Assembly (NCBI GenBank): GCA_030599585.1 | Contig: JAUVNS010000016.1 | Location: 28,607 to 92,606 of the forward strand | Origin: Promethearchaeota archaeon | GTDB lineage: Archaea; Asgardarchaeota; Lokiarchaeia; Sigyniarchaeales; SOKP01 | Direction: 5' to 3' | DNA: 64,000 bases | Shown here: piece after piece, positions 1 to 48,816 of the stretch | Layout of the letters: each line of letters opens with the position of its first letter | Numbering within the stretch: the stretch's first letter is position 1 | The notes under the pieces: model-generated | What the model saw: the letters and a program-made list of their open reading frames with translations, nothing else | What the model was told of the DNA's origin: nothing | The model's database searches: none | Made by a program: the position numbers and the translations under genes

Positions 1-1237
1 CGGGATTGCAATACGGTGGCGGGTTGCAAAAATACACGTTTGCCATTTTAATTCCGCCGGTAGTTTTTCCTTCCACTTGGTAAAAAATAGTTTCAGGAGT
101 TTTTCTCGATTTAAAGAATTCTATTTCTGCAAACGGATCGATAAGCCCAATATCTTTAAATTTAAACAAAGAACCCTTCATTACTTGAAATAACAATTCC
201 TGCCACCAAAAAAGTAAAATCGTAACGATTATACCAAGGCTTATTAAAAAACGGTATCCCATAGGTAAGGCAAAAAACAATAGAGACACGTCTAACGCTA
301 TCGTTATGCCAATTACATACGCCACCTTTAAGATGGAAGCCGTTAGTTTTGAATTTGTAGGTTTACACGTAATTTTTTTAGGATCGGACTCTAATGGAAC
401 GTCTCGCTTCAATACGGTGCTCCTAAACGACTCAATTAACGCTTGTTCGGTTAGAAGCGACACTTTAAAGTGGTGGAAATTGGACGAAATCCCCGTTTTT
501 AACGCAGTTACGCTTTTCCGGAGCTGACCTACCAACTCGGTCACCTTAGACTTCGTGATTTTTCCGGTCATTTTATAATAAGTAGAAAACAAAATAACCG
601 TCTCGAAGGTAGTATTTTTTCCGTTTCCTTTACTATCGATTATTTGAAGTGGTTTGTGAACGATCTGGAAAGTATAAGGGGTTCGATTGTTGTACATTCC
701 TTTGATAAATGTATGTAAGGACGGATTCACGTTTTCGGCCATGACTTCGACTTTTAAAGTACTTACGCCGGTAGTTACCAAATCTACTCTATTTGTATAG
801 TACAGCACGGATTTATAATACTCAGCCTTGTCGTAATCTTTCTTGTCGTATTCAGTCTGCCAGAAAATCAAGTTTTGAAAAGGGTTAAACGCTCCAAATT
901 CCAATAGGTGACGCAAACCAAAAAAACTTTTTCTAAACACCAGCACGAAACTTATCCCGACTACAACGGTTGCGCCAATCGAGAGCACAAAATCCATCGT
1001 GGTTAAAACTAACGAGGCAAAAAAAAGAAATTCGATTATTACAAACGAGATCGCTTTTTTGAGCGTGTCGGTTTTATCGATGTCTTTATAAGAAGGGAAA
1101 GCGTTCCAGACGCTATAGTAGGGGTCGTCGTCGCCTTCTCTGTCGTCACCTTTACTGTTTTCGTTACTTTCTTTTCCTTTTCCTTTTCCATTCCAATTAT
1201 TATCTTCGTCTAAAAATTCTCCATACGATTTTACCAT
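1..1237 (-). CDS. Partial membrane protein (runs off left edge) with two repeated TM-TM + alpha/beta modules
   Basis: Hand translation from ATG at 1237 (MVKSYGEFLDEDNN...) is open to the window edge. Two hydrophobic hairpins are each followed by a similar segment (NPFQNLIFW..YYTNRVDLVTTG / DPFAEIEFF..FYQVEGKTTGG). Missing from the ORF track because it has no stop in the window; starts 6 nt after the upstream gene's stop. Confidence 0.85.
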   Translation of the reverse strand, partial: MVKSYGEFLDEDNNWNGKGKGKESNENSKGDDREGDDDPYYSVWNAFPSYKDIDKTDTLKKAISFVIIEFLFFASLVLTTMDFVLSIGATVVVGISFVLVFRKSFFGLRHLLEFGAFNPFQNLIFWQTEYDKKDYDKAEYYKSVLYYTNRVDLVTTGVSTLKVEVMAENVNPSLHTFIKGMYNNRTPYTFQIVHKPLQIIDSKGNGKNTTFETVILFSTYYKMTGKITKSKVTELVGQLRKSVTALKTGISSNFHHFKVSLLTEQALIESFRSTVLKRDVPLESDPKKITCKPTNSKLTASILKVAYVIGITIALDVSLLFFALPMGYRFLISLGIIVTILLFWWQELLFQVMKGSLFKFKDIGLIDPFAEIEFFKSRKTPETIFYQVEGKTTGGIKMANVYFCNPPPYCNP

Positions 1238-1243
1238 TTTTTT

Positions 1244-2098
1244 TCACCTTTTTCCGTAATACAGTTTGTTAATAAATACTAAAATTACCATCACTCCTAC
1301 GCAAATAAGAGTCGAATTACTTACGGTCATGGATAACACGCCGTACATGAACGACTCCACCAAAAGAATTGCCCCAATCATGCCAAATAAAATAATTAAA
1401 CCAAAAACCACGAGTTGTCCGGCGTTTTCTTTTGTATTTCGATACGAAATGTTGTCTTTTAACGAGCCTGAAACTACGATCTTTCTCCTCGATTTCTGCT
1501 CTAACTTTGTTTTGATTGTTTTTAGTTGTAAAATCTTTTCAAACGCGTTTTTATCGAATTGTTGTTCGAGCTGAATCTGGAGGGCTTTCTCCTCGTCTTT
1601 AAACCGTTGCATTAATATCGGGCTAAAAGTGTTGTCGCTTCTTCCTTTTTTAGACCGACCACCAGAAAGAAACGAAAACATAGATATATTGCGGTTTGAA
1701 TGTAGAGCGTCTGCGTTAATCTTCTCGTGTAAATTGGGAATTTCTAATTTTCGGAGCTCGTAATACGTCTCAAGTACGCTTTTTACTTGCGTCAGGTTAA
1801 TATCTCCCTCCCGTCTTAAAAACAAAAGTTCGATCTGAGAAATTGTTTCTATCCATTCTTTCTTGAACACGACAATATCGAAGTTGAGCGAAAATATGTT
1901 GTTTACGAGTTTCATGTATTCAAAAATGTTCTCCCCCGCTTCTTTGCTCCTCGACCGAAACCCTAATTTAATTCCGATCTCGTCTACGGCGTTGCTTACG
2001 AACACGAAACTGACCACTGATAACCTTTTGTAGTTACCTGACTCCTTACAGAGCTGGGCCAACCGTCTTAACTTTAGATCTAACACTTGTTCGCTCAT
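1244..2098 (-). CDS. Hypothetical membrane protein (helical N-terminal domain, two C-terminal TM helices)
   Basis: 284 aa ORF, overlaps the upstream gene by 4 nt (ATGA coupling), hydrophobic C-terminus. Confidence 0.75.
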   Translation of the reverse strand: MSEQVLDLKLRRLAQLCKESGNYKRLSVVSFVFVSNAVDEIGIKLGFRSRSKEAGENIFEYMKLVNNIFSLNFDIVVFKKEWIETISQIELLFLRREGDINLTQVKSVLETYYELRKLEIPNLHEKINADALHSNRNISMFSFLSGGRSKKGRSDNTFSPILMQRFKDEEKALQIQLEQQFDKNAFEKILQLKTIKTKLEQKSRRKIVVSGSLKDNISYRNTKENAGQLVVFGLIILFGMIGAILLVESFMYGVLSMTVSNSTLICVGVMVILVFINKLYYGKR

Positions 2099-2844
2099 TT
2101 TTTGCCCCTCGCTTCCAAAAAATCTTCATATATAAATTCTGCTTCGTTTTTTACCCCTTTTTTGCGCTTGACTCGGGAAGATTCGAGTTCTAATTCTTCT
2201 TGGGCTATTAATCGGTCTAAATCGAACGGTTCTTTTGCGTTCGTAATATACGCGTTAACCATTTTTTCGGGAGTTGATTGTTCCTTTTCGAAAGTATTTA
2301 CTACCGAATGGTTAAACAAGGCGTACGGAAAAGTACACCCAAAAGAAATTACTTGAAGCCAATATCCAGGACCAAGGGAATAATACAAAGTAAGTTCTAA
2401 CTCGTAATCGTAATAGACCATGAAAGGATAATACAAGTCGTTTGGCAATAGAAAAAATAACGGGAACACCGACACAAAAAATCCTATAAGCGTTACTAAC
2501 GAGAGAGTAATAAAACCGAACCTTTTAACTTTCACCAAGTTATCTCCTTTTTCTACGTCGTGAAAAAGCGCGGAGTAGCCAGAAAGGAAAATAACGATTA
2601 CAAAAATAATCGCGATCACAACCGGCATAGTAGCGTTCTGGGGCTGGAAATGATCGTTAAATAAATTCCCACCCGCAAACGGAGTGCTCCACCCTAACAA
2701 AGCGTTATACGTCCACGAAGTGACGGTCGCTCCGCTATCGAGTACTCCTTGAAAGTAATACCAATCCAAAAAAACGGAGGCGAGACTAAAGATAAGGCCA
2801 ACTAAAAAAATTATTTTATATCCTGATTTTATATTTATCGACAT
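2095..2844 (-). CDS. Multi-pass membrane protein, first gene of a membrane-protein operon
   Basis: 249 aa, about 4 TM segments, charged C-terminal tail. Confidence 0.75.
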   Translation of the reverse strand: MSINIKSGYKIIFLVGLIFSLASVFLDWYYFQGVLDSGATVTSWTYNALLGWSTPFAGGNLFNDHFQPQNATMPVVIAIIFVIVIFLSGYSALFHDVEKGDNLVKVKRFGFITLSLVTLIGFFVSVFPLFFLLPNDLYYPFMVYYDYELELTLYYSLGPGYWLQVISFGCTFPYALFNHSVVNTFEKEQSTPEKMVNAYITNAKEPFDLDRLIAQEELELESSRVKRKKGVKNEAEFIYEDFLEARGKK

Positions 2845-2894
2845 ATTGCGTTACGCTCTATTTATTTTCACTTGGAGGGTATAATAGAGGGGAA

Positions 2895-2910
2895 TTTATA
2901 AAGAAAAAAA
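2895..2910 (-). promoter_or_regulatory. Non-canonical promoter TTTTC-TTTATAAA
   Basis: Reverse-strand TATA box preceded by TTTTTTC, about 50 nt upstream of ATG 2844; same motif recurs before many genes. Confidence 0.6.
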
Positions 2911-3462: not shown

Positions 3463-5250
3463 TTACGGATCGTCTAAAAACGACGAGTATTTACCGTTAT
3501 ATTTTGTTGTTGATACGTTAACAGACTTAGCTTTGACTTGCTCGGGTTCAAACATGTTTTTAAATTCAGGTTCGCTTCGTTTCGTGTCAATGCTATTTTT
3601 TAAAGATTTGACTTCGACTTGTTCAATTACCCCAAACGAGGCTTCCTTTCCTAAACACTCGTATCCAAACTGAGCCATCAACTCGTCCGTCAGCTCTTCC
3701 TTAAAATCGAGTAAATCGGTTTCGTTAAATTCCAAAGTTTGTTGGTAGTATGGCGTTTTTACTTGAACCACGAACTCCTTTTTAGTTTTATAGGCTCTGA
3801 AGTATAAGAACGCGAGCAAGGAAAGGTAAATCCCTAGGACAGCGAACCCAACGGTGTTAAGTAACCTCAATAAAAAATACATTTCGGCAAAATAAATTAC
3901 TAAAAGCGCTACTGCGTACCCGAAGATAGGAATTGAAGCGTATCTTACGCGAGAGTTAAGCTCGACTTGTGATTTTTGATAATCTTTAATAGAACTCTTT
4001 TTTTTCGTTCTCTTCTCGATCATTTTGTATTTCTTCTCTAAAAATTTAACCAGAGGAGGAACATCGGTGCGAACAACTGCGTGAAGGTTCGAAGTTCTTT
4101 GGTACGGAAAGACCAGCGATTTTTCCATGCTTTTAGGAGGGGCGTTGCACACTAAGATAGGTTCGATAACGACTTTATATTGCGTGGTTCCAGAGAGAAA
4201 CACCAAATTTTTATTTCCGAAGCTTTTTTCCGATCGTAATTCTAGTTGTAAATATTTTTGGAAGAACTGAAGAATAGTAGTATCGTTTGCCACGTCTTCT
4301 TGGATATTATTTCGGACTTGGAATAAATTCTGGGTAATTTGTTTTACGTCGTTAAAAGCTCGCGAATCTTTGTTGTTCCGATAATCTTTCAATTCTATCT
4401 TGGTTTCGTCAACTAATACCGTTCCGCTTCCTTCAAACCGTTTCACAGGAAACAGAAACAAAATTTTAAGGTTATTCGAAACCCCCACTAGTTTACACCC
4501 GAGATAGTCGAGGTTCTTCGTAAACTCACTTAACGATTCTAACGAGTCAGGGATTTCGTAACACCCTAAATCTTTGAACGTTTCTCTAATTTCGAAAGCT
4601 CTACTTCTAGAAAGTCCTGCGTCTACGGTAATTGGTTTTGTGGCAGTAACTTCGATTTCTTCTTCTACTCCTTTTTGTTGTTCTGGCTGATCTTGTTCCG
4701 TTAACATCGCGCGACTAGTATGTTTTATTTCTTGCGAAGCTTCTTCTTCGTATTCAACTACTTCCTCCTCTTCTTCCTCGTATTCAATTACTTGCTCAAC
4801 CTCTAGTTGACCACCGTAATCAACGATTTCAGGGAATTGAATTGCTTTTGGTTTGCTTGCGCTAAAGTCTTCTTCCGCCTGAACTTCTTCGTAAGAATTT
4901 TGTGTCTCTTCTACGATTAGTTCTTCCACTTCGTATTTTTCAACTTGGGTTGGTAATAATTCGATTTCTACTGCTTCTTGAATTTGAGGCGTATTGTTTG
5001 CAATACTTTCTTCTTGAGAACTATCCAAATAATTTTTAGCCGCAGTAATGAATTTTGTGGCGGTGGTTAAACCAATTCCGGGAGTTTCAGAAAGTCGTTC
5101 AGGAGTCATCTCGGCAATTTGTCTTACCGTTACAATTTTTGCGTTATATAATTTCTCGGCGGTAGTCGTACCAATACCCTTGATCTTGGTTAGATCGTCT
5201 CTAGAAAGCTTAACAACTACGTTTTTTTGGGTTCCGTATACATCTGTCAT
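3463..5250 (-). CDS. Helix-hairpin-helix DNA-binding protein with acidic linker and two TM helices
   Basis: N-terminal DLTKIKGIGTTTAEKL...TPGIGLTTATKF (HhH2, Rad51-N-like); E-rich linker; hydrophobic hairpin YASIPIFGYAVALLVIYFA / VGFAVLGIYLSLLAFLYF. Confidence 0.8.
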   Translation of the reverse strand: MTDVYGTQKNVVVKLSRDDLTKIKGIGTTTAEKLYNAKIVTVRQIAEMTPERLSETPGIGLTTATKFITAAKNYLDSSQEESIANNTPQIQEAVEIELLPTQVEKYEVEELIVEETQNSYEEVQAEEDFSASKPKAIQFPEIVDYGGQLEVEQVIEYEEEEEEVVEYEEEASQEIKHTSRAMLTEQDQPEQQKGVEEEIEVTATKPITVDAGLSRSRAFEIRETFKDLGCYEIPDSLESLSEFTKNLDYLGCKLVGVSNNLKILFLFPVKRFEGSGTVLVDETKIELKDYRNNKDSRAFNDVKQITQNLFQVRNNIQEDVANDTTILQFFQKYLQLELRSEKSFGNKNLVFLSGTTQYKVVIEPILVCNAPPKSMEKSLVFPYQRTSNLHAVVRTDVPPLVKFLEKKYKMIEKRTKKKSSIKDYQKSQVELNSRVRYASIPIFGYAVALLVIYFAEMYFLLRLLNTVGFAVLGIYLSLLAFLYFRAYKTKKEFVVQVKTPYYQQTLEFNETDLLDFKEELTDELMAQFGYECLGKEASFGVIEQVEVKSLKNSIDTKRSEPEFKNMFEPEQVKAKSVNVSTTKYNGKYSSFLDDP

Positions 5251-5278: not shown

Positions 5279-5292
5279 TATTTAAAGGAAAA
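5279..5292 (-). promoter_or_regulatory. Non-canonical promoter TTTTCC-TTTAAATA
   Basis: 28 nt upstream of ATG 5250, a leaderless-type spacing. Confidence 0.7.
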
Positions 5293-6975: not shown

Positions 6976-9516
6976 ATGTCTCTTACAAACTATACCGACT
7001 CAAAGAGTTCGTCAGACGAGGATGGAACGGAGGAAGAAATATTTGAATACGTTCAAGACGAGCGTATCCTTCGAGTATTATTCGAACAAAAGATATTTAA
7101 GCTCCGGCAGATTCAAAAAGAAGCCATCCAAAAAGGTCTTTTCTTTCGAAAGTCTTTCCTCGTAAGCGCACCTTCGGGAAGCGGTAAAACGCTGATAGGA
7201 GAAATTAGCGCCGTAAACAACGTGTTCCAAAAGTTCGGTAAATCGATTTATTTAGTTCCCTATAAAGCTCTCGCAACCGAAAAATACGTCCATTTTAAGA
7301 AAGCGTACGAACGATTCGGCGTTAAAACCGAGCTATCGATAGGCGATTACGATGTGGACGATTCTCGGTTGGCTAAAGCAGATATTATAGTAACTACCTA
7401 CGAAAAAATGGATTCGATTTTGCGAAACTTCAGCGAAAAAGAATGGATTATCGACATCTCGACTATTATAATCGACGAAATTCACATTTTGGGAGAATCG
7501 AGCGGTTCTCGTGGTCCACGGTTAGAGTCGTTAATCGTGAGACTGAACGAGTTCTTACACCAACCGCAGCTTATAGGACTTTCGGCAACCATAAAAAATC
7601 CCCAATTTTTTAACGAGTGGCTCTCTTCACTTGGTAATAGTTCTACACTTATAATGTCCGACGCCCGTCCCGTTCCTTTACATTATAGCGTAGATATAAC
7701 CCAGAACAAAGACTCCACGATAAAAAAAATAATCAAAACAACTTTAGCAGATAGGGGACAAATCCTAGTTTTTTTAAACAGGAGAAAATCTACTCAACAA
7801 ACCGCTCGAAACCTAAAAAATTTGGTGAAGACCCAATTATCCGAAACCGAGTTAAAAGCGTGTAAGAAGATAGAAGAAAAGCTCAATAGAATTAAAGGAA
7901 GACACGCAGAACTTAAAAAGGCGGTTAAGTGTGGGATAGCGTTCCATCACGCCGGATTGCTTCCAAAGGAACGAAAACTAGTAGAAGACGGGTATCGAAA
8001 ACACGTGATTAAAGTGATATGTTGTACAACTACTTTAAGTGCCGGTATTAACGTGCCTGCTCGAGTAGTGGTAGTCAAAGATTTCAAGCGATACGTGACC
8101 TCAGGGCACAACATTAAAAACTTTTCTGGATACTACGAACAGGGGGACGGCTTCTCCTACTTCATGCCCTTCTCGGCTAATTCCGTGTTTCAAATGCTCG
8201 GTAGAGCGGGAAGACCGGGGCTTGACTTAGAAGGGTTTGGTTATTTACTCGCAAAGAACGTAGACGAAAGGGATTGGATCGAGGATCATTACTTCCAAAA
8301 CGCCCATACTACGGATACCTACGTTCCTAAATACAACGATTTAATTTCGGGGCTCAATAAACTTAACACCTTGAAAGAACAAGTACTATTACGAATTTAC
8401 GAGGAGAAAAATATGACCTTGGACAAGTTAAAAGATTTTTTCCAGAAGACGTTTTTTTGGTTCAGCATAAAAGATAAGATGTCAAAAGAACAAATACCGA
8501 TAGATCAACTCTTAATGATTAAAGAAATAACTCCTGCAAACATACTCAAACTCCACTCACATCCAGAAAAAGTTAAGAAATTAGGTATTAGGCGTTACCA
8601 AATTAAAATTACCAAGCTCACGAAATCTAACGTGTCGGGATACATAAAAACCGATTTTGGAGTCTTTTTTACCGAGTTCGACGTTGATGTGGGAATACGA
8701 TGTTCGTGCGGGTTCGAAAACGGACTGTCAAACAATTACTCTAACGAGCAGTTTTCGTTCGAGTTCTGCGACCACATCACTGCATTTTTGCTCCACTTGA
8801 TCGAAATCCCAGATAAAAACTTTCAAAAATATGTAGAAGATATCGTTCCTAAGTCGGTTAAGAACCAATACGTGCTCAACTATCTTTTTGAAAAAGGGTT
8901 AATCGTAAAGAGGGATAACGGCACCATAAAATGCTCGCAATTCGGAAAACTCATTATAAGGCTTTACCTTTATCCCGTTTCAGGAGTTTTAATACGATAC
9001 AAGCTCGAAAACGCCGCGATTGAAACATACCAAGACGTAATTAAGGAAGCGTACGAAGTGCTTAAATCGGAAATGAGGGTTCGAGACTACAAGTTGCTCC
9101 AACCCATCTTGGAGTGGTGCGACGAAGAACCAATCGACGACATTTTAGAGAGACATAAGATAATGGCGGGCGACCTTTACACTATTAAGGACAACTTAGA
9201 GCGCATCATAACGTTTATTGGAATTATTGCGGTTCACCTAAGCGAGTCAGATCGAGACATCGCTGAGGCTATGGTTAAAGTAGCGGAGATGTCCGAGACG
9301 CTCAAAATTAGGGTGCATTACGGGATTAGCGAAGAGTTATTCGATTTGGTTTTACGACTGGACAACGTGGCAAGAGTAAGAGCGAGAATATTATATAACG
9401 CCGGTTATCACACCGCCACGAAGGTTAAAAGAGAAAATCCTTACGTATTGAATCGAAAAACGGGATTAGGGATTAATTTATGTAAGAAGATTGTAGGAAA
9501 AAAAACACTTTCTTGA
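6976..9516 (+). CDS. Ski2-like SF2 helicase (Hel308/Hjm family paralogue) with SWIM zinc-finger insertion
   Basis: APSGSGKT, DEIH, SAT, HHAGL, QMLGRAGRPG, C-terminal HhH; CSC...CDH SWIM signature. Confidence 0.9.
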   Translation: MSLTNYTDSKSSSDEDGTEEEIFEYVQDERILRVLFEQKIFKLRQIQKEAIQKGLFFRKSFLVSAPSGSGKTLIGEISAVNNVFQKFGKSIYLVPYKALATEKYVHFKKAYERFGVKTELSIGDYDVDDSRLAKADIIVTTYEKMDSILRNFSEKEWIIDISTIIIDEIHILGESSGSRGPRLESLIVRLNEFLHQPQLIGLSATIKNPQFFNEWLSSLGNSSTLIMSDARPVPLHYSVDITQNKDSTIKKIIKTTLADRGQILVFLNRRKSTQQTARNLKNLVKTQLSETELKACKKIEEKLNRIKGRHAELKKAVKCGIAFHHAGLLPKERKLVEDGYRKHVIKVICCTTTLSAGINVPARVVVVKDFKRYVTSGHNIKNFSGYYEQGDGFSYFMPFSANSVFQMLGRAGRPGLDLEGFGYLLAKNVDERDWIEDHYFQNAHTTDTYVPKYNDLISGLNKLNTLKEQVLLRIYEEKNMTLDKLKDFFQKTFFWFSIKDKMSKEQIPIDQLLMIKEITPANILKLHSHPEKVKKLGIRRYQIKITKLTKSNVSGYIKTDFGVFFTEFDVDVGIRCSCGFENGLSNNYSNEQFSFEFCDHITAFLLHLIEIPDKNFQKYVEDIVPKSVKNQYVLNYLFEKGLIVKRDNGTIKCSQFGKLIIRLYLYPVSGVLIRYKLENAAIETYQDVIKEAYEVLKSEMRVRDYKLLQPILEWCDEEPIDDILERHKIMAGDLYTIKDNLERIITFIGIIAVHLSESDRDIAEAMVKVAEMSETLKIRVHYGISEELFDLVLRLDNVARVRARILYNAGYHTATKVKRENPYVLNRKTGLGINLCKKIVGKKTLS

Positions 9517-11819: not shown

Positions 11820-11822
11820 AAT

Positions 11823-14000: not shown

Positions 14001-14015
14001 GCTTATCTCCTCCTA

Positions 14016-14591: not shown

Positions 14592-14671
14592 TACAAGGTA
14601 CATTTGTCGTAAGAATAAAAAGGAAAAATTGTGAAATGGATAAAAAAATAAAAAAAAAAAGAAAATATGAT

Positions 14672-21774: not shown

Positions 21775-21780
21775 TAAAAT

Positions 21781-22125: not shown

Positions 22126-22127
22126 AA

Positions 22128-29592: not shown

Positions 29593-29747
29593 GTCCAAGA
29601 GTCAGTCTATTCTCGTATTTTTTTACAAGGCGACAATTTATAAAATTGTGTTTCGTATCTTTTAGTAGGATATAACTTTTTTGTGTTAAACCTTATTGAT
29701 TGTACTTATCATGTTCAGGAGAAAAAAAGAAAAAAAAAAGAAAAAAA

Positions 29748-37175: not shown

Positions 37176-37199
37176 TTTTAGACGAGGCGATCAGAAAAA

Positions 37200-37865: not shown

Positions 37866-37899
37866 CAATAATAATAATTTAAAATAATTTTAGCGTCAG

Positions 37900-39093: not shown

Positions 39094-39141
39094 ACGGGAG
39101 TGCATTTTTTTCTTTAAATACTCCTCGTTAATTGTCGCTTT

Positions 39142-40227: not shown

Positions 40228-40359
40228 GTAATATATTTATTTTTTCGTGGCTTCGGCCTCCAATAATCTAAAACCTCAAATCTTTTTCTTTTTTTTTTTA
40301 TAATTTTAATTTTTTTATCAAGACTTTTTCTTTAAATACTACTCATAAGTTGTTAAACC

Positions 40360-40740
40360 ATGATAACACCTGAGCTCGTAAAAACGCGAGAATCAAAAAA
40401 AGCCATGGCACAATGCGCTATTTGTGCCGGATTAGGTATAAAAATCCTAAAATTAGGCTCCAACTTCGCGGTAGTATGTAAAAACTGCTTAGTTACGTTC
40501 TCTTTAAGCGACCTCGAACTTATGCACAACATGTTCCTTGCCTACGGAGGGTATTTCGGGAAATACGCCAGCAGTAAAGAAGAGTCTTATCAAGAACTAG
40601 AAGCAATCTCAGAAGAATACGCTCAGTCAAGTAAAGACTTCGAAAAAATAGAAAGCGACGTGAGAAACCTCCATCGGGCGTTTACGCACGGAATCACCCC
40701 AATTCAATTAGTTCAAGGGCTTCGGGTGTTATCAGACTAA
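40360..40740 (+). CDS. Zinc-finger protein (GGYFG family), paralogue of 22914..23288
   Basis: CAIC..CKNC..FLAYGGYFGK..HR..THGITP; motif at 40325-40338. Confidence 0.75.
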   Translation: MITPELVKTRESKKAMAQCAICAGLGIKILKLGSNFAVVCKNCLVTFSLSDLELMHNMFLAYGGYFGKYASSKEESYQELEAISEEYAQSSKDFEKIESDVRNLHRAFTHGITPIQLVQGLRVLSD

Positions 40741-40759
40741 TTCAATCAGAAAACGGAAA

Positions 40760-40954
40760 GTGAATAATATGGAAAAAGTTGAAAGTAGCATCAAAAATCG
40801 ATTTATGGCTCTAGCATCTTTAGAGTTAGGTTTTGACGACATAGCGAGAGAAAGAGCGAGTAAACAACTCGAACGTTGTTCTCCCGCAAACTCTTTAAGT
40901 GTAGAAAAAAACGAGCTTCTGATGTTTCTTCTCTCTCAGAGCATAATGAGTTGA
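40760..40954 (+). CDS. Small hypothetical protein
   Basis: 64 aa ORF directly downstream of 40740. Confidence 0.4.
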   Translation: MNNMEKVESSIKNRFMALASLELGFDDIARERASKQLERCSPANSLSVEKNELLMFLLSQSIMS

Positions 40955-41011
40955 TTTAATTTAAGTTTTAGATATAAAAATTAGTTTTTTAAGAATATCA
41001 GGTAAATAGAT

Positions 41012-43921
41012 ATGTCAAACGAAACCTATCCTAAGGAAGTCCCGTATAAGTACAAGTATTTTGAAGGGTTAGAAATTGGCGCAGTCTCAGTGAAGTGGCT
41101 TCGAATAGCGCAAGACGGTGCGATATTAAAAGAAATTGTGCGCCACGAAGGTTATCCAAGGGAAAAAATTAAGCAAATTTTTGAGCGATACAACAGCAAC
41201 GGAGATTCAAGCGTTGTAGTTACGGGTAGCGTAGCCAAAAAATTTTACGATTTTTCTTATTACTCTGAAGCCGAATGCTTTGAAAAGGCGTTAACCTATT
41301 ACGGCATAAAACCAGACTTACTTCTATCCTTGGGAGGCGAGACCTTTAGCGTATATCCCATGAGAAACGGTATCGTTAAAAATATAATATCCAGTTCAAA
41401 ATGTGCTGCGGGGACGGGAGAGTTTATTGTACAACAACTCGGAAGAATGGGTTTATCTTTGAAGCAAGGTATTAGAGAAAGCTCAAAGGGTCAAATCGTA
41501 CAGTTAGCTACTCGATGTTCGGTCCATTGTAAATCTGATGCGACTCATAAGCTCAACAAAGGGGAATGTAAGCCCGAAGACATCGCAAAAACGTTAATAC
41601 ACGATTTAGCCAGAAAAGTGAGCGAGATGATTGAAAGCGCTCAATGGCCAACAAAGTTGATAGTAATTGCTGGAGGTGTTGCGTTAAATAAGTATTTTAT
41701 TGAAAGCATGAAAACATTCCTTCCTGGTTCTGAACTAAAAGTCTTGCCCGAAAGTCCTCTTCTCGAAGTATTTGGAGCAGCTCTATACGCGTCTGAAATT
41801 GGAGGCGAAACCCAACATCACGAGAGTTGGGACGCTCGATCCGGTAATAAGTTTGAAACCTTAGAACCTCTTAACAATGCCGAAGGATTATTAGATTATC
41901 GCGTTGAATCGACTTATAGAACACACATAATAAATAACGGTTCTTATATTTTTGCTGTAGACGCGGGATCCACTACCACAAAGGCAGTTCTCTTTAACCT
42001 CGATAACGGTTCGATTGGGGCTAGCGCATATTTAAGAACGCTAGGGAATCCAATTCTATCGGTAAAAAAGTGTATAAAAAGTCTTATTGAACAAGTAGGA
42101 GACGCATCAATAAAAATCGTTCAGTGCGCAGTTACGGGGTCGGCAAGAGAAATGGTGTCTGTATATTTGGACAATTGCCGGAGTTTTAACGAAATATTAG
42201 CTCACGCCAGAGGTGCTACTGAAGAATTACCAAACGTTGACACCGTATTTGAAATAGGCGGACAAGATTCAAAGTTTATAAATTTTCTAAATGGCGTTCC
42301 AATCGATTGCACCTTGAACGAAGTGTGTTCTGCGGGAACAGGAAGTTTTTTAGAAGAATCCGCTTCGGTAGATATGCGTATTCCAGTAGGAGACATTAGC
42401 GACATGGCTTTAAAAAGCACTCATCCGATTGCGTTTGGAGTGCGGTGCGCTGCTTTTATCAACACCGATTTAAGAAACGCACTCCAACAAGGTGCTAAGC
42501 GAGAAGCCGTCGTTGCTGGTTTAGCGTATTCGATCGCTGAAAATTATAAGTCGAGGATAATTGGTTCCCGTCAAATAGGAGAAAACGTGCTATTTCTGGG
42601 CGGGGTTGCGCTAAATAAGTCGGTAGCGTTGGCTATTGCGAATTGCACTCAGCGTAAAATTATCGTACCTTCTCACCCTGAGCTCATGGGAAGTATAGGT
42701 TCTGCCCTTATGGCGCGCGATCTTTTGGATCGGAAAGATATTGTTAGAAGAAAGTTTGCGTTAAAAGATTTGTTATCAGGAGACATGAACGTTAAAAATA
42801 AGTTTAGGTGTAACGCGTGTAAAAATAATTGCGAAATTCAAAATATATCCATTCGGGGTAAATCGTATCCGTTCGGAGGTTTATGTTCCAAATACACGCT
42901 GTTGCGACAAAAAGACGTCAAGAAGAGGGGTATAAACCTAGTTGAGATGAGAAACAACTTACTTTACAACGAATTCGGTCCAATTACTCTTAAAAACCCG
43001 CTTGGTTCTATAGGGTTGCCGATGGCGTTAACTACTCATTCGCTTTTCCCTTTATACGCTAAGTTTATTAACGAATTAGGGTATAACGTAGTTTTATCGA
43101 AGTCAATAGAAACAGGAGACACAAAAACTTTGTCCCCTATCTGTTACCCTTGCGAATTGGTACACGGGGCAGTAAAAAATCTCATCAAGCAAAAGGTCGA
43201 TTATATCTTCCTACCCCGGGTTCTTGAGATGGAAGCGTCCGACGGTTACTTGCACGGATACACGTGTACTTCGACCTCTATCATATCCGACGTCGTAATC
43301 GCAGCTTTTGAGAACGAACGAGATAAAATTTTGTCTCCTCACGTGAGCACCTCAACAGATTATGTTACTACAACCTTACAAGAATTTGGAAAAGTGGCTG
43401 AAAAACTCGGATTAGAAAAAACAAAAGGAGAGGAAGCCGGAAAAAAAGCTTTTACCCATTACGCAAAGTTTCTTGCCAAATATCGCAACTTAGGAGAAAA
43501 AATGCTCCCGAAATTAACAAAAGATCCTTGCGTAATAGTTGCCGGAAGACCTTACGTAGTTTACCCAAGCGGGATTAACATTGCACTCCCTCAGAAGATT
43601 GCGAGTAGAGGGTACCACGTAATTCCAGCTGATATTTTGCCTCAAATGAACGCCGATCACGAAAGAAACGCGTGGCACTACACTCAACAGATGAACAAAG
43701 CGGTTGATTTCGCAAGGAAGCACCCAAGAGTGTACATCTGCTTGGTCTCGTGTTTTTCTTGTGGCCCTGACGGTACGATGTATCACAGTTTTCGGCAAAA
43801 ACTAGCGGGAACCACGTTCTGCTACCTCGAGATTGATTCCCACACGGCACACGCAGGCTTCGAAACGCGAGTGGGAGCTTTTCTGGACATAATTGAAACG
43901 CAAGTAGTTAAATTAAGTTAA
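41012..43921 (+). CDS. Acyl-CoA dehydratase activase (double BadF/BadG/BcrA/BcrD ATPase + DUF2229)
   Basis: CAAGTG, RCSVH, DAGSTTTK, EIGGQDSK, CSAGTGSFLEE, CFSCGPD, LEIDSH. Confidence 0.9.
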   Translation: MSNETYPKEVPYKYKYFEGLEIGAVSVKWLRIAQDGAILKEIVRHEGYPREKIKQIFERYNSNGDSSVVVTGSVAKKFYDFSYYSEAECFEKALTYYGIKPDLLLSLGGETFSVYPMRNGIVKNIISSSKCAAGTGEFIVQQLGRMGLSLKQGIRESSKGQIVQLATRCSVHCKSDATHKLNKGECKPEDIAKTLIHDLARKVSEMIESAQWPTKLIVIAGGVALNKYFIESMKTFLPGSELKVLPESPLLEVFGAALYASEIGGETQHHESWDARSGNKFETLEPLNNAEGLLDYRVESTYRTHIINNGSYIFAVDAGSTTTKAVLFNLDNGSIGASAYLRTLGNPILSVKKCIKSLIEQVGDASIKIVQCAVTGSAREMVSVYLDNCRSFNEILAHARGATEELPNVDTVFEIGGQDSKFINFLNGVPIDCTLNEVCSAGTGSFLEESASVDMRIPVGDISDMALKSTHPIAFGVRCAAFINTDLRNALQQGAKREAVVAGLAYSIAENYKSRIIGSRQIGENVLFLGGVALNKSVALAIANCTQRKIIVPSHPELMGSIGSALMARDLLDRKDIVRRKFALKDLLSGDMNVKNKFRCNACKNNCEIQNISIRGKSYPFGGLCSKYTLLRQKDVKKRGINLVEMRNNLLYNEFGPITLKNPLGSIGLPMALTTHSLFPLYAKFINELGYNVVLSKSIETGDTKTLSPICYPCELVHGAVKNLIKQKVDYIFLPRVLEMEASDGYLHGYTCTSTSIISDVVIAAFENERDKILSPHVSTSTDYVTTTLQEFGKVAEKLGLEKTKGEEAGKKAFTHYAKFLAKYRNLGEKMLPKLTKDPCVIVAGRPYVVYPSGINIALPQKIASRGYHVIPADILPQMNADHERNAWHYTQQMNKAVDFARKHPRVYICLVSCFSCGPDGTMYHSFRQKLAGTTFCYLEIDSHTAHAGFETRVGAFLDIIETQVVKLS

Positions 43922-43971
43922 TTATTTTTTGGTTTTATTAAAAACAATTAAAGAAAGGTGTAAAAAGAAGT

Positions 43972-45360
43972 ATGTTGGATGTAAGTAATTGTGCGGTGGA
44001 AGAAATTCCCAAAGCGGTCCAAGCTAAGTTTTCTGGGGGCTATATTGTAGATAGTGACGGTCAGAAAGTTGATCTTAGCGATCCTAGAGTGGTCTACGTT
44101 TTACCCGAACCAAGGAATTCCTACGGAAGACGCCTTGTGGAAGATTTGTACGCTTCCCACAACAAGAGCGTTCGAATAAGTGGGGAAACTAACGCTTCCA
44201 CGCTAAATTACGGTAAAAAAATCTGTTCTGGAAGGGAATGTCTTCCGAGTCTTGCAATAGCTGGCGCTGTGTTAAGAGACATTCAAGAGCATCGGGAGGA
44301 AAACGAGGTTACTATTTACACTACCCCAATTGACCAACATGGACCGTGCCAAAATGGTGCTTGGCCAGTACTGTGGGAAACATTTGCCAAGAGGTTAAAC
44401 GTTAAAAATTGTCTTTTTTACCAGACGCCTGGTTACCACAACAACTATTTAGGGTTAGACAAAGATTTCATAGCGCAAGAAAAGCTTAACTTCGTTATAG
44501 GTCAGTACATTATCGAAGCACGGAACGCCTTACGCTGTACCGCAGAAGATCAGTATTCCGCATTAAACGATTTCGAAGAAATTACGGACAAGTTTATTGA
44601 AAGCGTAAGGCTAAAAGAAAAAACGATTAAAACTGGTTTACTCAGATGGGCAAAAGAAGTCGCTAAAATACCGTTAAAGGCTAAAGTAGAAGAAACTGCT
44701 AAAATATTAATCTTTGGCGGGTTGAACTTAATGTTCGATCACTACCCCATCGAAGAATTTTACTTAGAAAAAGGGATAATAACAAAAGTTTCTGACTTGG
44801 CAGAAGCAATGACTCTTTTGTTGTCTGAAAAAATAATAAAATTTGGTCTTAAAAAAGGACTCCTTACCCCGAAAGAACAGTTCGACGAGTCCTTGATAAA
44901 TTTTTCGGAACTAAGCCAGCAAGAACAGAAGGAGGCCACGAAAGCTAAGCGAAGCAAGAGCGTGATTAATTTTTTGGACACGCAATGTAAGACATATCGA
45001 AGGATCATGGGAAAGTCGGGGTTATTGTTCGATTCCTACGTTGAGATCGATAAACTTTTAGAAGAAGGGCATCAACACGCCTCCGCAAATAGTATGACTG
45101 AAACGCCGCAAATAGTTGGGAGGTTTCTCTATTCTCTTAAAGAACAAATATTTGACGGGCTGATAAACCTTGGGACGTTCAATTGCCAACCAGCCATGAA
45201 CTCTCAAGCAATTATTCGACCGTTAGCGAACAAGAGCGAAGTACCATACGCCGCAATTGATTGCGAAGGACCGTGGATATCTTCTAACCAAAAAAGACTC
45301 CTCGAAACGATCGCAGTTCAAGCTAAAAGGTTACGCAAAAAGAAAAATGGTTTTCTTTAA
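43972..45360 (+). CDS. Activase-associated 2-hydroxyacyl-CoA dehydratase-related protein
   Basis: CSGRECLP, GPCQNG, GTFNCQP; adjacent to the activase. Confidence 0.75.
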   Translation: MLDVSNCAVEEIPKAVQAKFSGGYIVDSDGQKVDLSDPRVVYVLPEPRNSYGRRLVEDLYASHNKSVRISGETNASTLNYGKKICSGRECLPSLAIAGAVLRDIQEHREENEVTIYTTPIDQHGPCQNGAWPVLWETFAKRLNVKNCLFYQTPGYHNNYLGLDKDFIAQEKLNFVIGQYIIEARNALRCTAEDQYSALNDFEEITDKFIESVRLKEKTIKTGLLRWAKEVAKIPLKAKVEETAKILIFGGLNLMFDHYPIEEFYLEKGIITKVSDLAEAMTLLLSEKIIKFGLKKGLLTPKEQFDESLINFSELSQQEQKEATKAKRSKSVINFLDTQCKTYRRIMGKSGLLFDSYVEIDKLLEEGHQHASANSMTETPQIVGRFLYSLKEQIFDGLINLGTFNCQPAMNSQAIIRPLANKSEVPYAAIDCEGPWISSNQKRLLETIAVQAKRLRKKKNGFL

Positions 45361-45593
45361 TCGTTCCTATGTCTGAGTGTAAGAGATGTAGACAATCTTG
45401 GCGCCCTCCTAAAGATATAATCTACAAAGAAGGGTTTTGTATTCCTTGTTATTTTATCGTACACGATTTTTTAGAAGAGAAAAAACCTTCTTTAGAAAGG
45501 TGTCTCGTTCAGCAATCTTTATAACCGGGTTTATTAAAAATTTTCTTCGTTGAGACTTTTTCTTTAAATATTCCTCACATGAGTAATAAAACT

Positions 45594-46341
45594 ATGATAA
45601 CACCTGAACACAAGACGGTGAAAAATTATTCTTGATAAAAAATGTTTTATAATTAACAACAACTTAACGCTACAGTTGAACGGAGAAACTACTAATATTT
45701 ACGTGAACGGTAAATTGTTTCGTCACTGCAAATTTCTTTTACTGCAAATTCCTAACGAAAACATTAAAGATTATAAGAGCATCGATTCAATAGACGAAGC
45801 AGAAGAAGTTTATAGTCGTTCGTTAGAGCGTCCCAGAACATCTGTTTGTAAGATTTCTCCGGAAGAAGAATTCTTTGGTCATTGTTCGAATTTGCAAGCG
45901 TGGGCAGAGAACGAATACGATAGTAGAATACTTCACAGAAACTTGGCGTTCCCTTTGTTAAAAATGCTCTTCGATACAGGCGATTCCTTCGCAAAAATTA
46001 GGCTAAGAGAAGAGGTTGCCCTACGCCTTGAGAGTGGACACCCTTCGGTTGTAAGATATCTTATTTCTGAAGGTTATTTGTCGTATTTAGACGAAAATGA
46101 GATAGGGAATATTCTTCTTAGTTTAATTAGAAAACACGGCAAAAACATTAATCCTAAAACATACGACGCTATCATCCATTATTTTTTCAACAAATATCAG
46201 GCTGAATTTGGTTTTTCTTTACTTGAGCTCATTGAGAGAATGGGGAAAGAAAAAAACTACAGAAACACTAAAGGAAGCTGTAAGTGTGGGTTAACATTCA
46301 ATTTTTCTCAATATTTTGATTTATCTCGCACATATCTTTGA
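45594..46341 (+). pseudogene. Loki-type 'NIYVNG..CKFLLL' domain protein with a +1 frameshift in an A5 run near its start
   Basis: MITPEHKTVK (45594) joins KIILDKKCFIINNNLTLQLNGETTNIYVNG if one A is removed at 45621-45625; downstream ORF 45676..46341 carries EEEFFGHCSNLQAW..LHRNLAFPLL. Confidence 0.55.
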
Positions 46342-46413
46342 AAATTTTTCAATTTTTCTTTTATATATATATACATTTAGTAGATTTATTAAAGATCAAT
46401 TTGTTATTATCCT

Positions 46414-46824
46414 ATGGCAGAATCACAAGATAGTATAGAACAATTTTTAAGCCCATATGCAACCGATCGCTTAAATCAGAAATCAGGGAAGCCAGTCAAA
46501 AATATTCTTAAGCAAACTGTACATAAAGAGTTTCTTGATTATTATGCTTGGATGATTAAAGCTTTTGCGAGATGCGTTTTCAATTTAGAAGGGGAAATAT
46601 ATCTTAGAGACATTATTACTATAATAATAGCTGAGGCTAACCTTGCAACGGATGCTCCTCCATTTAGAGTAATGTTAGCAAATAATTTCTTTAGTACTTT
46701 TAACGCTTTGGATTTTAAGGCATTTTTGGAGAGCGAAGTCCACCGATGGTTAGTATATCTACAAGAAAATAGTAAATTGCCTGGAAAATATAACAGATTC
46801 ACTGGAAAATACGAAAAAAATTAA
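46414..46824 (+). CDS. Hypothetical protein
   Basis: 136 aa ORF; motif at 46353-46367. Confidence 0.65.
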   Translation: MAESQDSIEQFLSPYATDRLNQKSGKPVKNILKQTVHKEFLDYYAWMIKAFARCVFNLEGEIYLRDIITIIIAEANLATDAPPFRVMLANNFFSTFNALDFKAFLESEVHRWLVYLQENSKLPGKYNRFTGKYEKN

Positions 46825-46860
46825 ATTATTAAAATTATTTTAATAGGAGTGAAGAGATAA

Positions 46861-47145
46861 ATGACTTTTGACCCATTTCAAGATTTTTTTGGCGCTTTTA
46901 CTTTTATGACCATAATTTTTATAGTAATAGCAATAATAGCTATCGTCTTTTTCGTCGTTATAATCTATTTCATAATTAGATCATTAAAGGGTGATACTAA
47001 ACGAAGCGAAAGAACGAGTCCAGCTAAACCATACCCGGAAAAGGTCTTCAAAAAAGAAGAAACATCGAAATTTTGCAAATATTGCGGTGCTAAAATCACT
47101 GAAGAACTTATTATTTGTCCTGATTGTGGAGAACAACTGAAATAA
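46861..47145 (+). CDS. Single-TM zinc-ribbon protein
   Basis: TM followed by FCKYCG..ICPDCG; GGAGTG SD. Confidence 0.75.
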   Translation: MTFDPFQDFFGAFTFMTIIFIVIAIIAIVFFVVIIYFIIRSLKGDTKRSERTSPAKPYPEKVFKKEETSKFCKYCGAKITEELIICPDCGEQLK

Positions 47146-47289
47146 CTTAATATATCGAGCGCAAACATAGAACTACCTCCTCACTCCATGAATAACTCTA
47201 ATGTTCTTATATCAAATCCTTACAGTATTACGATGAAAGATTTGTTCTATGACAATTACGTTAATCACATTTGAATTTACCGATTTTGC

Positions 47290-48042
47290 TCAAACAAAGA
47301 CTTCGTTCTTTTTTAACACCCAAGTATCGATTGTGAACTGTTGCGTGTTGCTCGATTCTAAGTCGTAATTCGAGTGGATGGTAGACTTCGGAATCCAAAT
47401 TTGTTTTCCGCTTTCGAAAAGGATCAGAAGCGCTTTTTCGGTCTTTCTCTCGCATATCCCTCTAACCTTAACGGATTCGTTGTCGAGATTTATTTTTTCT
47501 AATTGCGAGGGGGGAACTTGACTAGTAGTTTGGTTTTTTGGTTCTGATACGCCTACCGTTTCTTCTGTCACTAATAGCTCTGATTTTTGCTCGTTTGTTT
47601 CAATGACAGCAGGTTTCTTAAAGCCACCGTTTTTGGATTTAACGGTCGAATTTGCTATTTTCTCTTCGAATACATGCTCCAATAGCGCTTTAAACACCAC
47701 AACCTCGGAGTAGTTTAACATTTTGTAGTAATCGCCACCGTTGACGTGGAATCTTTCTTTATTTTCTTTATCCCATTTGAAAAAAATAGAAGTTTTATTT
47801 TCTTCGAAGATGTGAATCGTTTTCCAACTTGGCGCTTCTTTGCGTAGTACTCTTAGGATGAGCACCATTTCTTCTAGAGAGAATTTAATGGACTTTCCTT
47901 CTCCTTTTGAGGGCTTTTCCCACGTTCCATTATCTTTCTTTTTGATAAACCTTAAAAAAAAAAATTGGTTACTCCAGGAACTACTGTCAAAAAACATCCC
48001 CCCACTCGAACCAAAAAACGCTTTGTTGTGATATTCTACCAT
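47290..48042 (-). CDS. Putative PC4/Whirly-like ssDNA-binding protein with small C-terminal beta domain
   Basis: FIKKKDNGTWEKPSKGEGKSIKFSLEE; C-terminal TEKALLI..WIPKS; motif at 48087-48100. Confidence 0.55.
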   Translation of the reverse strand: MVEYHNKAFFGSSGGMFFDSSSWSNQFFFLRFIKKKDNGTWEKPSKGEGKSIKFSLEEMVLILRVLRKEAPSWKTIHIFEENKTSIFFKWDKENKERFHVNGGDYYKMLNYSEVVVFKALLEHVFEEKIANSTVKSKNGGFKKPAVIETNEQKSELLVTEETVGVSEPKNQTTSQVPPSQLEKINLDNESVKVRGICERKTEKALLILFESGKQIWIPKSTIHSNYDLESSNTQQFTIDTWVLKKNEVFV

Positions 48043-48120
48043 AAGTCGATCAACTTGTACTAATTACTAAGTAATCAGATTTTACTTATTTAAAGAAAAA
48101 TTTATTATTCAAATTTACAA

Positions 48121-48325
48121 TTAAATCGAAGTCTTTACTGCTTGAGCTAACCGATACGACATTAAAGGAAGCACTGCATTACCAATTTGCTTAATCAGGT
48201 ATGTCTTCGAACGATATATCTAAAATGTCAATCGCGTACACGATTTCGAATCCGGCTTTGACAAACCCTATATCGAGCCCTCCACAACCGCTAAACAAAC
48301 TGCAAACTTTTATTTTTGTTCCCAT
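48121..48325 (-). pseudogene. Remnant of a C5 cytosine DNA methyltransferase (internal deletion)
   Basis: Motif I SLFSGCGGLDIGF..AGFEIVYAID, then a stop; motif X KQIGNAV.P in another frame about 100 nt later. Confidence 0.85.
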
Positions 48326-48389
48326 AACTACTTGAGATAGGAAACAAGTGAGTGCTTTTAAAAAAAAAAATACTAGAATAGTTTTAGGT

Positions 48390-48665
48390 TTAAGGACAAA
48401 TTCCCGTATCTCTATTTGTGTTGATTTGATAATCTATAACCTGTGGTTTTAGCAAATTATTTGACGAAGTTTGCAATTTTTCTATCGATACGAGAGATTC
48501 TCTGTCTATCCAGACGATATTTCCATCGTTTTCTATCCATATAAAATTCTCTTCTCTTTCAAGGAAATTATCTAACTTAGATTCGTTAATTTCGCCGTAG
48601 CAAACTTTTTTTTCCCCGTCTCGTTCGTATCTTATCCTAACCACGGTGTTATCATTTTCGTTCAT
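48390..48665 (-). CDS. Small hypothetical beta-rich protein
   Basis: 91 aa ORF; TTGTTC-TTTATATA about 22 nt upstream. Confidence 0.6.
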   Translation of the reverse strand: MNENDNTVVRIRYERDGEKKVCYGEINESKLDNFLEREENFIWIENDGNIVWIDRESLVSIEKLQTSSNNLLKPQVIDYQINTNRDTGICP

Positions 48666-48816
48666 GTCTACTCGTAAAAATATAAGTATATAAAGAACAA
48701 GAAATTTTTCTTGCTCGATCGAAAAACCTCGATGTTAATATTAACATTTTTGAAGTTTAATTATATAAATATCACAGCTTATATTACTATATTAAAGGCA
48801 AAATTAACGATTACAA

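Follow-up and report, generated by a model that had tools for sequence, protein, structure and literature searches.

A probable accessory recombination island with a divergent TFB and its own promoter class in one family of Lokiarchaeia

Here we report that a 64,000-nucleotide stretch of DNA (positions 28607-92606 of contig C12 in bin G000, hereafter the window) probably contains the greater part of a ~45-60 kb accessory 'recombination island', which is confined to a single Lokiarchaeia family (f1). The island is an accessory and conserved gene unit. It encodes a divergent paralog of the archaeal initiation factor TFB, has a promoter class of its own, and combines extra paralogs of recombination enzymes with membrane proteins. 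A preliminary description, made from the letters of the window, had proposed a competence- or mating-like programme of DNA exchange; the co-regulated, accessory, envelope-linked unit with its own TFB was recovered in our analysis, but the movement of DNA between cells was not. A literature search found no description of the island, its TFB or its promoter class. Bin G000 comprises 4.85 Mb in 52 contigs and is rated at 100% completeness and 8.9% contamination. About 58 open reading frames (ORFs) of the window were scanned against Pfam, and selected ORFs also against NCBIfam. Distribution was surveyed in 150 other genomes of the phylum and in 24 same-genus genomes searched with the island TFB, and loci were fetched from four relatives (G002, G015, G016 and G017), in stretches that hardly extend past the island borders.

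The island promoter consists of a pyrimidine B recognition element (BRE; TTTTYC) joined to TTTAAATA, and about 20 transcription units carry this TTTTYC-TTTAAATA promoter. With up to two mismatches to TTTTCCTTTAAATA allowed, 24 sites were found in the window as compared to 6.2 expected, and none of 100 shuffles reached 24. The sites lie 35-70 nt upstream of gene starts and are oriented toward the genes. A strict form, TTTT[CT][CTG]TTTA[AT]ATA, occurs at 116 sites in the 4.85 Mb, with 21 on C12, 9 on C49 and 14 at C20:234-294 kb, all three being island-bearing, and the density of the motif in the island copies is ~11x that elsewhere in the bin. Among ORFs of at least 150 aa in the island copies, 40 of 143 are preceded by a consensus TATA octamer, and 75% of these 40 have the pyrimidine BRE, as compared to 379 of 3080 ORFs in the rest of the bin, where the pyrimidine BRE accompanies 16% of the 379. 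The motif is also present at orthologous promoters in G002, G015 and G016, though many of the proteins are only 27-60% identical. A by-product of high CpG content was considered as the origin of the motif and rejected, since there is hardly any motif in the high-CpG blocks on C23, C24 and C47; the composition thus has a cause separate from that of the motif. Co-regulation of the motif-bearing genes is well supported by these promoter patterns.

The TFB paralog is encoded at 19204..20478 on the minus strand and has a Zn ribbon, two cyclin repeats and an extension of ~130 aa. A single-sequence phmmer search of PDB with this protein found nothing, PDB profile matches were all to TFIIB/TFB and weak (E 0.1-0.2), and PF00382, which detected ten other TFB genes in the bin, did not reach E 0.01 on it. 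Its identity was therefore settled by profile-profile comparison. An hhalign comparison of 8 island TFB orthologs with 7 canonical TFBs of the bin gave a probability of 96.5% and E 8.5e-10 over 260 columns, with the alignment spanning the Zn ribbon through both cyclin repeats to the last helix. Judged by these profiles, the product is a TFB proper, though a divergent one. In TFIIB/TFB-DNA structures, the BRE is contacted by the V and R of the TFIIB/TFB recognition helix. In the island TFB this helix reads IKMSTIH, as against VTEVTLR in the canonical TFBs, the BRE-contacting V and R of VTEVT(L/I)R thus being replaced, and the M, S, T and I of IKMSTIH are invariant in 8/8 orthologs. From the co-occurrence of gene and motif, together with the changed helix, we infer that the island TFB reads TTTTYC promoters. 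The promoter of its own gene is of the purine type.

The TFB3 of Sulfolobales is a truncated co-activator without the DNA-binding cyclin core. Unlike TFB3, the island paralog keeps the Zn ribbon and both cyclin repeats, and has an altered BRE-reading helix that matches a distinct promoter class. Haloarchaeal TFB paralogs read specific BRE/TATA variants, for example at the hsp5 promoter (PMC2396416). The island resembles this regulation by general transcription factors in that the genome holds several TFBs (ten canonical ones here) and promoter choice would follow the BRE/TATA sequence; in contrast to haloarchaea, one highly divergent TFB is encoded within the island that it would serve, and the promoter class is almost confined to that island. 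The ~10 canonical TFB genes of the bin (e.g. C3:40750-41667 and C40:143198-144085) are unusually many. A second cluster of 7 motif sites is found at C9:324-338 kb (strict-form sites at C9:326-336 kb) and drives genes for a 484-aa and a 619-aa protein with ~25% identity to the cyclin region of the island TFB. On C10 (6-9 kb), three Zn ribbons of the TFIIB type occur in a protein of 569 aa. These TFB-like proteins of C9 and C10 are possible further members of the island regulatory circuit.

The recombination toolkit named in the preliminary description (RadA, a RadB-like ATPase, an RPA-like protein, a FEN1-like protein, Hel308 and Hef) was recovered by family searches, Hef being helicase-only. 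For RadA, FEN1, Hef and RPA, canonical genes with better equivalog scores were found on other contigs of the bin, and since these score far higher, the region is accessory and not a housekeeping neighbourhood. On the RadA model TIGR02236 (cut-off 361), two full-length canonical proteins on C24 and C27 scored 428 and 427 bits as compared to 247.9 for the island RadA. The island FEN1-like paralog (31652..32749, plus strand; XPG_N and XPG_I domains) scored 274.1 on TIGR03674, under the cut-off of 351.95, while the canonical FEN1 on C32 scored 429.2 bits. The island Hef-like SF2 helicase (11823-14000) lies in an operon at 11295..14603 (minus strand) with genes for a 195-aa protein and a DUF1922-type Zn-ribbon protein; on NF010337 (cut-off 610) it reached 569 bits, over model positions 5-548 of 781 only, and lacks the XPF-type nuclease domain. 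The canonical Hef on C4 scored 781 bits over positions 50-780, has the nuclease domain and also matched the Xpf model. The RPA-like OB-fold protein (34315..35238, plus strand) is short, has a perfect motif at 34252-34265 and scored 95 bits on NF012035 (cut-off 362), as compared to 198 for the canonical RPA on C3. By these scores, the island versions of RadA, FEN1, Hef and RPA are additional, divergent paralogs.

The island radA is read as two ORFs on the plus strand, one of 291 aa with an N-terminal helix-hairpin-helix (HhH) and the ATPase core (23758-24633; Rad51 domain E 1e-60), and one of 141 aa with an extra C-terminal HhH (24626-25051). Its promoter is TTTTTCTTTAAATA at 23709-23722. On NF003301 (cut-off 259) the 291-aa ORF scored 273.6, a score that belongs to the insert-cut ORF and not to the joined product. 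A 31-nt insert at 24565-24595 splits the gene within the conserved GGN|IVAHG motif, and without it a single ORF of 420 aa results. C12, C49 and G016 have the insert, whereas C20, G002 and G015 lack it and have a continuous ORF. The insert is a candidate small mRNA intron, a reading that follows from this presence/absence alignment and not from folding, since the RNA fold predicted around the insert was no better than shuffles (z -0.69). The island RadA is 86-96% identical within the genus, while neighbouring genes drop to ~30%. The available part of PMC12722695 describes a pair of RadA clades in some Asgard archaea, and Lokiarchaeia with more than one RadA paralog are found here likewise; the setting in an island, the fused C-terminal HhH, the promoter class of its own and the confinement to one family go beyond the RadA phylogeny in that part of the paper.

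The Hel308-type helicase (6976..9516, plus strand; Pfam/NCBIfam) has a SWIM-like CxC-x20-CxH at aa 576-600 (~8701-8775), in which no Pfam SWIM match was obtained. It is the best Hel308 match in the bin. Two sampled island-free genomes of genus g16 hold only another, 893-aa helicase type, and the island type was found only in island-bearing genomes; Hel308 thus also travels with the island. The RadB/KaiC-like P-loop ATPase (22128-22832) gave a weak match (TIGR02237, 34 bits). It ends an operon at 20980..22832 (plus strand), at which no clear motif was found, after a 7-transmembrane (TM) HExxH protein (20980-21774) and a 114-aa protein with one TM segment. A topoisomerase-type Zn-ribbon protein of 105 aa (27913-28230; E 4e-4, below cut-off) is followed by a 344-aa protein with a TM segment at both ends (26889..28230, minus strand), and this pair is kept in G002, G015 and G016. 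For the 'PC4/Whirly-like' single-stranded DNA-binding protein of the preliminary description, no candidate ORF had a family match. To the left of the window, a further Rad51-family paralog of 245 aa (C12:8718-9455; PF08423, 40 bits) and a NOV_C-domain protein (C12:10776-12356) are encoded. Two B12-radical SAM genes, an M20 peptidase gene and a ThiF-like gene lie between C12:12356 and the window, and motif sites occur throughout this stretch.

From the membrane operon to the GTPase operon, the whole block keeps its order in G002, G015 and G016 and some of it in G017, and both order and promoter motif are retained in relatives at protein identities as low as 27-40%. The island TFB was matched in 22 of the 24 other genomes of the genus, most with a single close match. 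Among the 150 other genomes of the phylum, island-type RadA (at least 67% identity) was found only in family f1, in genera g1, g12, g13, g14 and g15; in all other genomes, the best RadA identity to the island type was ~45%. Island markers were thus present in 5 of the 6 sampled f1 genera and nowhere outside f1, the sampled genomes of the neighbouring family f2 included. Within f1, the island RadA, the 1275-aa membrane protein described below, the TFB and Hel308 were all missing from two g16 genomes that are 98-99% complete, and in some genomes of g1 and g13 the TFB and the membrane protein occur but the island RadA does not.

Three diverged copies of the island are present in the bin: that of C12, one spread over C51-C49-C6-C52 (~88% nucleotide identity to C12) and one at C20:238-285 kb (~75%). 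An all-against-all comparison found the rest of the bin hardly redundant, the redundancy lying mostly in the island contigs and a C23/C24 block. C12 has a GC content of 0.362 and a CpG observed/expected ratio (o/e) of 1.42, as compared to 0.326 and 0.99 for the bin, and C49, C51, C23, C6 and C47 are similar to it. The same high-CpG signature occurs in parts of otherwise ordinary contigs (C24:369.5-409 kb, C38:1-18 kb, C52:50-61 kb and C9:320-343 kb), and it therefore belongs to regions and not to whole contigs. The genome is a mosaic, in which about 7% has a GC content of 0.35-0.39 and a CpG o/e of 1.3-1.5 against ~1.0 in bulk DNA, including C23:1-45 kb, C24:360-405 kb and C47:30-75 kb. In the C20 island the CpG o/e is mildly raised, to 1.15. 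Proteins of the C20 copy are 78-93% identical to those of G002 (64% for the HhH protein), which is the closest relative by canonical FEN1 (93%); by these identities the C20 copy fits vertical descent with G002. On C52, an island fragment adjoins a core gene, which occurs once in the bin and has 94% identity to G002. The GTPase gene of this fragment is cut short where the two meet, and synteny with G002 and G017 stops just before that point. The main genome thus probably holds at least two island copies at different loci. A plain mixed bin was rejected as an explanation, since redundancy is mostly confined to the island contigs and the C23/C24 block and C52 ties an island fragment to a core gene. 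Simple contamination does not explain everything, though it may hold for C12.

The membrane operon at the left end of the window (1-2844, minus strand) proved real, and its third gene crosses the window edge. Two tightly coupled genes head it (1244..2844), encoding proteins of 284 aa (two C-terminal TM segments) and 249 aa (~4 TM segments), for which no Pfam or PADLOC match was obtained; their order is the same in G002, G015 and G016, and the promoter variant TTTTTCTTTATAAA lies 64 nt upstream of 2844. The third gene (C12:26016-29843) encodes a membrane-anchored protein of 1275 aa, of which the N-terminal 412 aa fall within the window (2..1237), with TM hairpins in the first 345 residues. Searches of this protein against Pfam, by phmmer against PDB, and with a 35-sequence profile against PDB gave no match, while a language-model search led to DUF87/HerA/TrwB clusters. 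An AlphaFold2 model of residues 400-1000 from a 6-sequence alignment was discarded (pLDDT 42.5) and replaced by one of residues 560-1000 from 35 sequences (pLDDT 83.7, pTM 0.85), for which Foldseek found the HerA of S. solfataricus (4d2i, E 7e-13), VirB4 (4ag5, TM-score 0.65), TrwB and DndH-C. According to this model, residues 560-1000 have a translocase-type fold of the FtsK/HerA/VirB4/TrwB kind. The protein has no GxxxxGK[ST]: NGTNSSRE stands at the Walker A site and FIxxPH at the Walker B site, orthologs keep both, and since the Walker A lysine is absent, the protein cannot be a motor by itself. It has ~196 homologs of 1250-1300 aa; those with a named source come from Asgard, mostly Loki-type, metagenome bins and are annotated as hypothetical. 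Source names of homologs such as Lokiarchaeota and Promethearchaeota archaeon make the Asgard assignment of the window sound.

Its predicted fold (residues 560-1000), with TM hairpins ahead of the ATPase-like domain, resembles that of VirB3-VirB4 fusions and of HerA/FtsK/TrwB rings (4ag5, 4d2i, 1e9s), and, as with VirB3-VirB4 fusions, the gene shares an operon with small membrane proteins. In contrast to HerA, FtsK, TrwB and VirB4, it has no recognisable sequence similarity to them, carries the NGTNSSRE and FIxxPH sites, and at 1275 aa has extra domains without an assigned fold. A transfer-system fold among the membrane proteins, which the preliminary description had made a point of, is thus predicted, with its Walker motifs lost. 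The description had also asked whether a VirB4/CedB/HerA-type ATPase and VirB6/CedA-like genes follow beyond the left edge; the VirB4/HerA-fold gene does continue there, with degenerate ATPase motifs, and no VirB6/CedA family was matched in the Pfam scans. No active translocase was found in the membrane operon.

Next to the operon, a 595-aa protein (3463..5250, minus strand) has an N-terminal, RadA-N-like HhH (HHH_5 E 7e-12; NCBIfam RadA N-terminal match) and a TM hairpin at aa 435-484, and its promoter has a perfect TTTTCCTTTAAATA at 5279-5292. Neither the HhH nor the HerA-like domain is preceded by a signal peptide, and from this topology both DNA-handling domains probably face the cytoplasm. 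Two convergent genes at 29356..30119, with the motif upstream of each, encode small hydrophobic proteins of 78 aa (plus strand; two helices and a basic loop) and 123 aa (minus strand; three TM segments) without a family match. They had been likened to pilins, an analogy of size and of two to three hydrophobic helices, that is, of topology alone. The HhH membrane protein was borne out by family searches, as were the small GTPase, the NurA-HerA-Mre11-Rad50 operon and one of two proposed M50 proteases, an M50B-type intramembrane metalloprotease (HEISH; 25438..26319, minus strand) with the promoter TTTTTGTTTAAATA. The second, the 7-TM protein at 20980-21774, is a weak case: it has HEVAH in a TM segment and a language-model lead of 0.84, and looks M50-like, not VirB6-like.

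We propose that housekeeping transcription would make the island TFB under some signal and that this TFB would redirect RNA polymerase to TTTTYC promoters, a two-step cascade suggested by the purine-type promoter of the TFB gene itself. The island products might then assemble a recombination machine on the cytoplasmic face of the membrane, where a dead HerA/VirB4 ring and the HhH protein could hold or thread DNA, and the paralogous RadA/RPA/FEN1/helicase set would pair and process it. Candidate substrates are imported or exchanged DNA, the sister chromosome, or the island itself. Several points weigh against this account. Co-regulation is argued from promoter sequence, the pairing of TFB and promoter from co-occurrence and the changed helix, and the cytoplasmic placement of the DNA-binding domains from topology. 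Many motif-bearing genes have no assigned function or DNA link (the TPR and prenyltransferase-like genes, and the radical SAM, M20 and ThiF genes to the left), so that the label 'recombination' fits about one-third of the units. With three diverged copies in the bin, C12 a compositional outlier and contamination at 8.9%, the replicon to which C12 belongs, and even the organism, are uncertain.

Exchange of DNA between cells is a possible function of the island, though on the unlikely side. In its general form, a chromosomal uptake or mating system like competence or Ced/Ups, the membrane operon and the small hydrophobic proteins would be the conduit and the paralogous set would integrate the incoming DNA, which we hold to be unlikely. 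A TFB-switched Asgard mating system that exchanges chromosomal DNA, with a domesticated, ATPase-dead VirB4/HerA scaffold and a dedicated RadA/RPA/FEN1/helicase set, is more doubtful again. The HerA/VirB4/TrwB fold predicted for a membrane-anchored protein, whose gene belongs to a membrane operon of four genes, speaks for such exchange, as do the adjoining membrane-tethered HhH protein, the small 2-3 TM proteins with a basic loop and, by analogy, a dedicated RadA/RPA set like that of competence regulons. The three diverged copies, one of which joins core DNA that is non-syntenic with G002/G017, would be accounted for if whole islands had passed between species. However, the loss of Walker A and B is conserved across ~200 homologs, and the membrane operon offers no other translocase. 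Pfam scans of the window ORFs and the left flank found no VirB6/TrbL, ComEC, DprA or type IV pilus families, the pilus ATPase and platform included, and the probable cytoplasmic position of the HhH and HerA-like domains and the purely topological pilin analogy also tell against exchange.

Comparison with known systems divides along the same lines. In Sulfolobales, DNA damage induces the Ups pili and the Ced DNA importer in a TFB3-dependent manner (PMC6101594, PMC6101591), and Ced/Ted components have homology to type IV secretion systems, with CedB/TedB as ATPases thought to power DNA translocation (PMC9905601). The island is like the TFB3/Ced/Ups system in tying a TFB paralog to DNA-repair and envelope genes, and like Ced/Ted in encoding a VirB4/HerA-superfamily protein with small membrane proteins in association with recombination genes. 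Ted loci of Thermoproteales commonly hold HerA and Rad50 genes (PMC9905601), as does the surrounding of the C12 island, which again favours an uptake or mating system. Unlike CedB/TedB, the VirB4/HerA-fold protein has lost its Walker motifs; unlike Ced/Ups, for which this is not described, the island duplicates a whole recombination toolkit; and no island membrane protein had a Pfam match to CedA/VirB6, the likeness to CedA1/VirB2 being one of size and topology alone. Like bacterial competence regulons, the island has an alternative initiation factor, an HhH DNA binder anchored in the membrane, and a recombinase and single-stranded DNA-binding protein of its own. It differs from them in that Pfam scans of window ORFs gave no ComEC, DprA or pseudopilus families, that its HhH is N-terminal, has no signal peptide and is probably cytoplasmic whereas that of ComEA is extracytoplasmic, and that its components are archaeal/eukaryote-type.

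An unusual mobile element (a plasmid, an integrative and conjugative element or a virus-like element) is a distinctly improbable alternative, in which the TFB and its promoters would provide autonomy and RadA, the single-stranded DNA-binding protein, FEN and the helicases would serve the recombination-dependent replication or integration of the element. An initiation factor and a promoter class of one's own are a virus- or plasmid-like trait. In the same direction point the three diverged copies in the bin, as compared to a single close TFB match in most of the 24 same-genus genomes, the GC/CpG composition foreign to the bulk genome, the patchy presence within the family, the C52 junction at a truncated GTPase gene where G002/G017 synteny stops, and the restriction-modification, Mrr and UvrD genes at the right end. 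The gene content does not follow suit: no family of integrase, replication initiator, polymerase, primase, capsid or terminase was found in the window or left flank, in line with the preliminary description, which had noted neither integrase nor replication genes. The bin has two tyrosine recombinases (PF00589), on C31 and C32, and thus not on C12, C20, C49 or C52. No tRNA was found on C12, C49 or C52 or near the C20 island, and a PHROG scan of 20 island proteins gave no informative match. In addition, the C20 copy sits within a 411-kb contig and tracks G002 as vertical descent predicts, and the genes keep their order from genus to genus.

An anti-virus or anti-plasmid defence island built around the HerA-like protein is very unlikely. 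Many of the best structural matches of its modelled domain are the HerA partners of SIR2-HerA and DUF4297-HerA, and an Eco57I-type enzyme, Mrr and UvrD are encoded at the right end of the window, but PADLOC was null for the 1275-aa protein and its operon partners in a scan of 20 island proteins, the protein has neither ATPase motifs nor a SIR2, DUF4297 or nuclease partner, and the restriction and Mrr genes are motif-less and outside the conserved block. Scarcely credible is an ordinary replication/repair neighbourhood with the motif as the standard strong promoter of the organism, for although the island Hel308 is the best in the bin and NurA-Rad50 is a standard archaeal repair operon, this reading is contradicted by the much higher-scoring canonical copies elsewhere, the motif ~11-fold enriched in island DNA, with no such BRE at other promoters, and the f1-only distribution with all searched markers missing from nearly complete g16 genomes.

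As an accessory island, the region is a concrete, testable system, in which a single divergent TFB and a single, sharply defined promoter class occur together with a duplicated homologous-recombination toolkit that is linked to membrane proteins. If the pairing of TFB and promoter is true, Asgard archaea would offer a clean case of a general transcription factor that switches promoter classes. RadA, FEN1, Hef, RPA and even Mre11-Rad50 are here partly an accessory gene pool, which matters for studies that use them as markers. The HerA/VirB4-fold protein, catalytically dead by its predicted structure and motifs and conserved in ~196 mostly Loki-type sequences, would be a new family needing explanation. 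The interest seen in the preliminary description stands with its premise: were DNA exchange true, the island would bear on the prehistory of eukaryotic sex.

Other units of the window are less clearly linked to DNA. A gene at 14672..17644 (minus strand), with a motif variant upstream, encodes a protein of 990 aa that has a TM/signal segment at its N terminus and an alpha-alpha toroid of the prenyltransferase type, and a longin protein is encoded at 10117-10536. The operon at 36642..39093 (plus strand; motif at 36574-36587) encodes a 177-aa protein, an Arf/Ras-like GTPase (37200-37865) and a 397-aa protein; at 67-71% identity to G015, its genes are among the best conserved of the island. The 177-aa protein, described before as an MglB-like partner of the GTPase, looks roadblock-like by eye and had no family match. 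The right-hand motif-bearing stretch (39107..48665), which has no counterpart in C20, encodes a TPR protein, a Zn-finger protein and uncharacterised motif-bearing proteins of 221, 136, 250 and 91 aa, among which lies a BcrAD/BadFG-type activase pair that has no motif (41012-45360). Within it, the 35 nt upstream of 39142 and of 40360 are almost the same before unrelated genes, as a promoter-plus-leader unit (sites 39107-39165 and 40325-40390), and a motif match also lies within 45557-45612.

The NurA-HerA-Mre11-Rad50 operon (48817..55004, plus strand; Pfam) has no motif. The preliminary description had the island abut it, which holds for C12 but not for C20 or the fetched G015 locus. Within the bin, the operon is found on C12 and C38 (C38:10044-18398) only, in high-CpG DNA, and its Mre11 was found in G017 and not in G002, G016 or G177, which are 99-100% complete. 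The adjacency is therefore not a conserved feature, the operon being absent beside the other two loci and Mre11 patchy among relatives. To its right, a low-GC (0.28-0.31), defence-like islet at 55111-63587 encodes an Eco57I/MmeI-type restriction-modification protein, an RNase H-like protein, a MYG1-like exonuclease, UvrD and Mrr, and none of its genes carries the island motif. Homologs of both C12 ends occur at the end of C32, in a high-CpG block (C32:199-213 kb) where 7 kb separates them, and this block contains one of the two tyrosine recombinase genes of the bin (C32:210086-210580).

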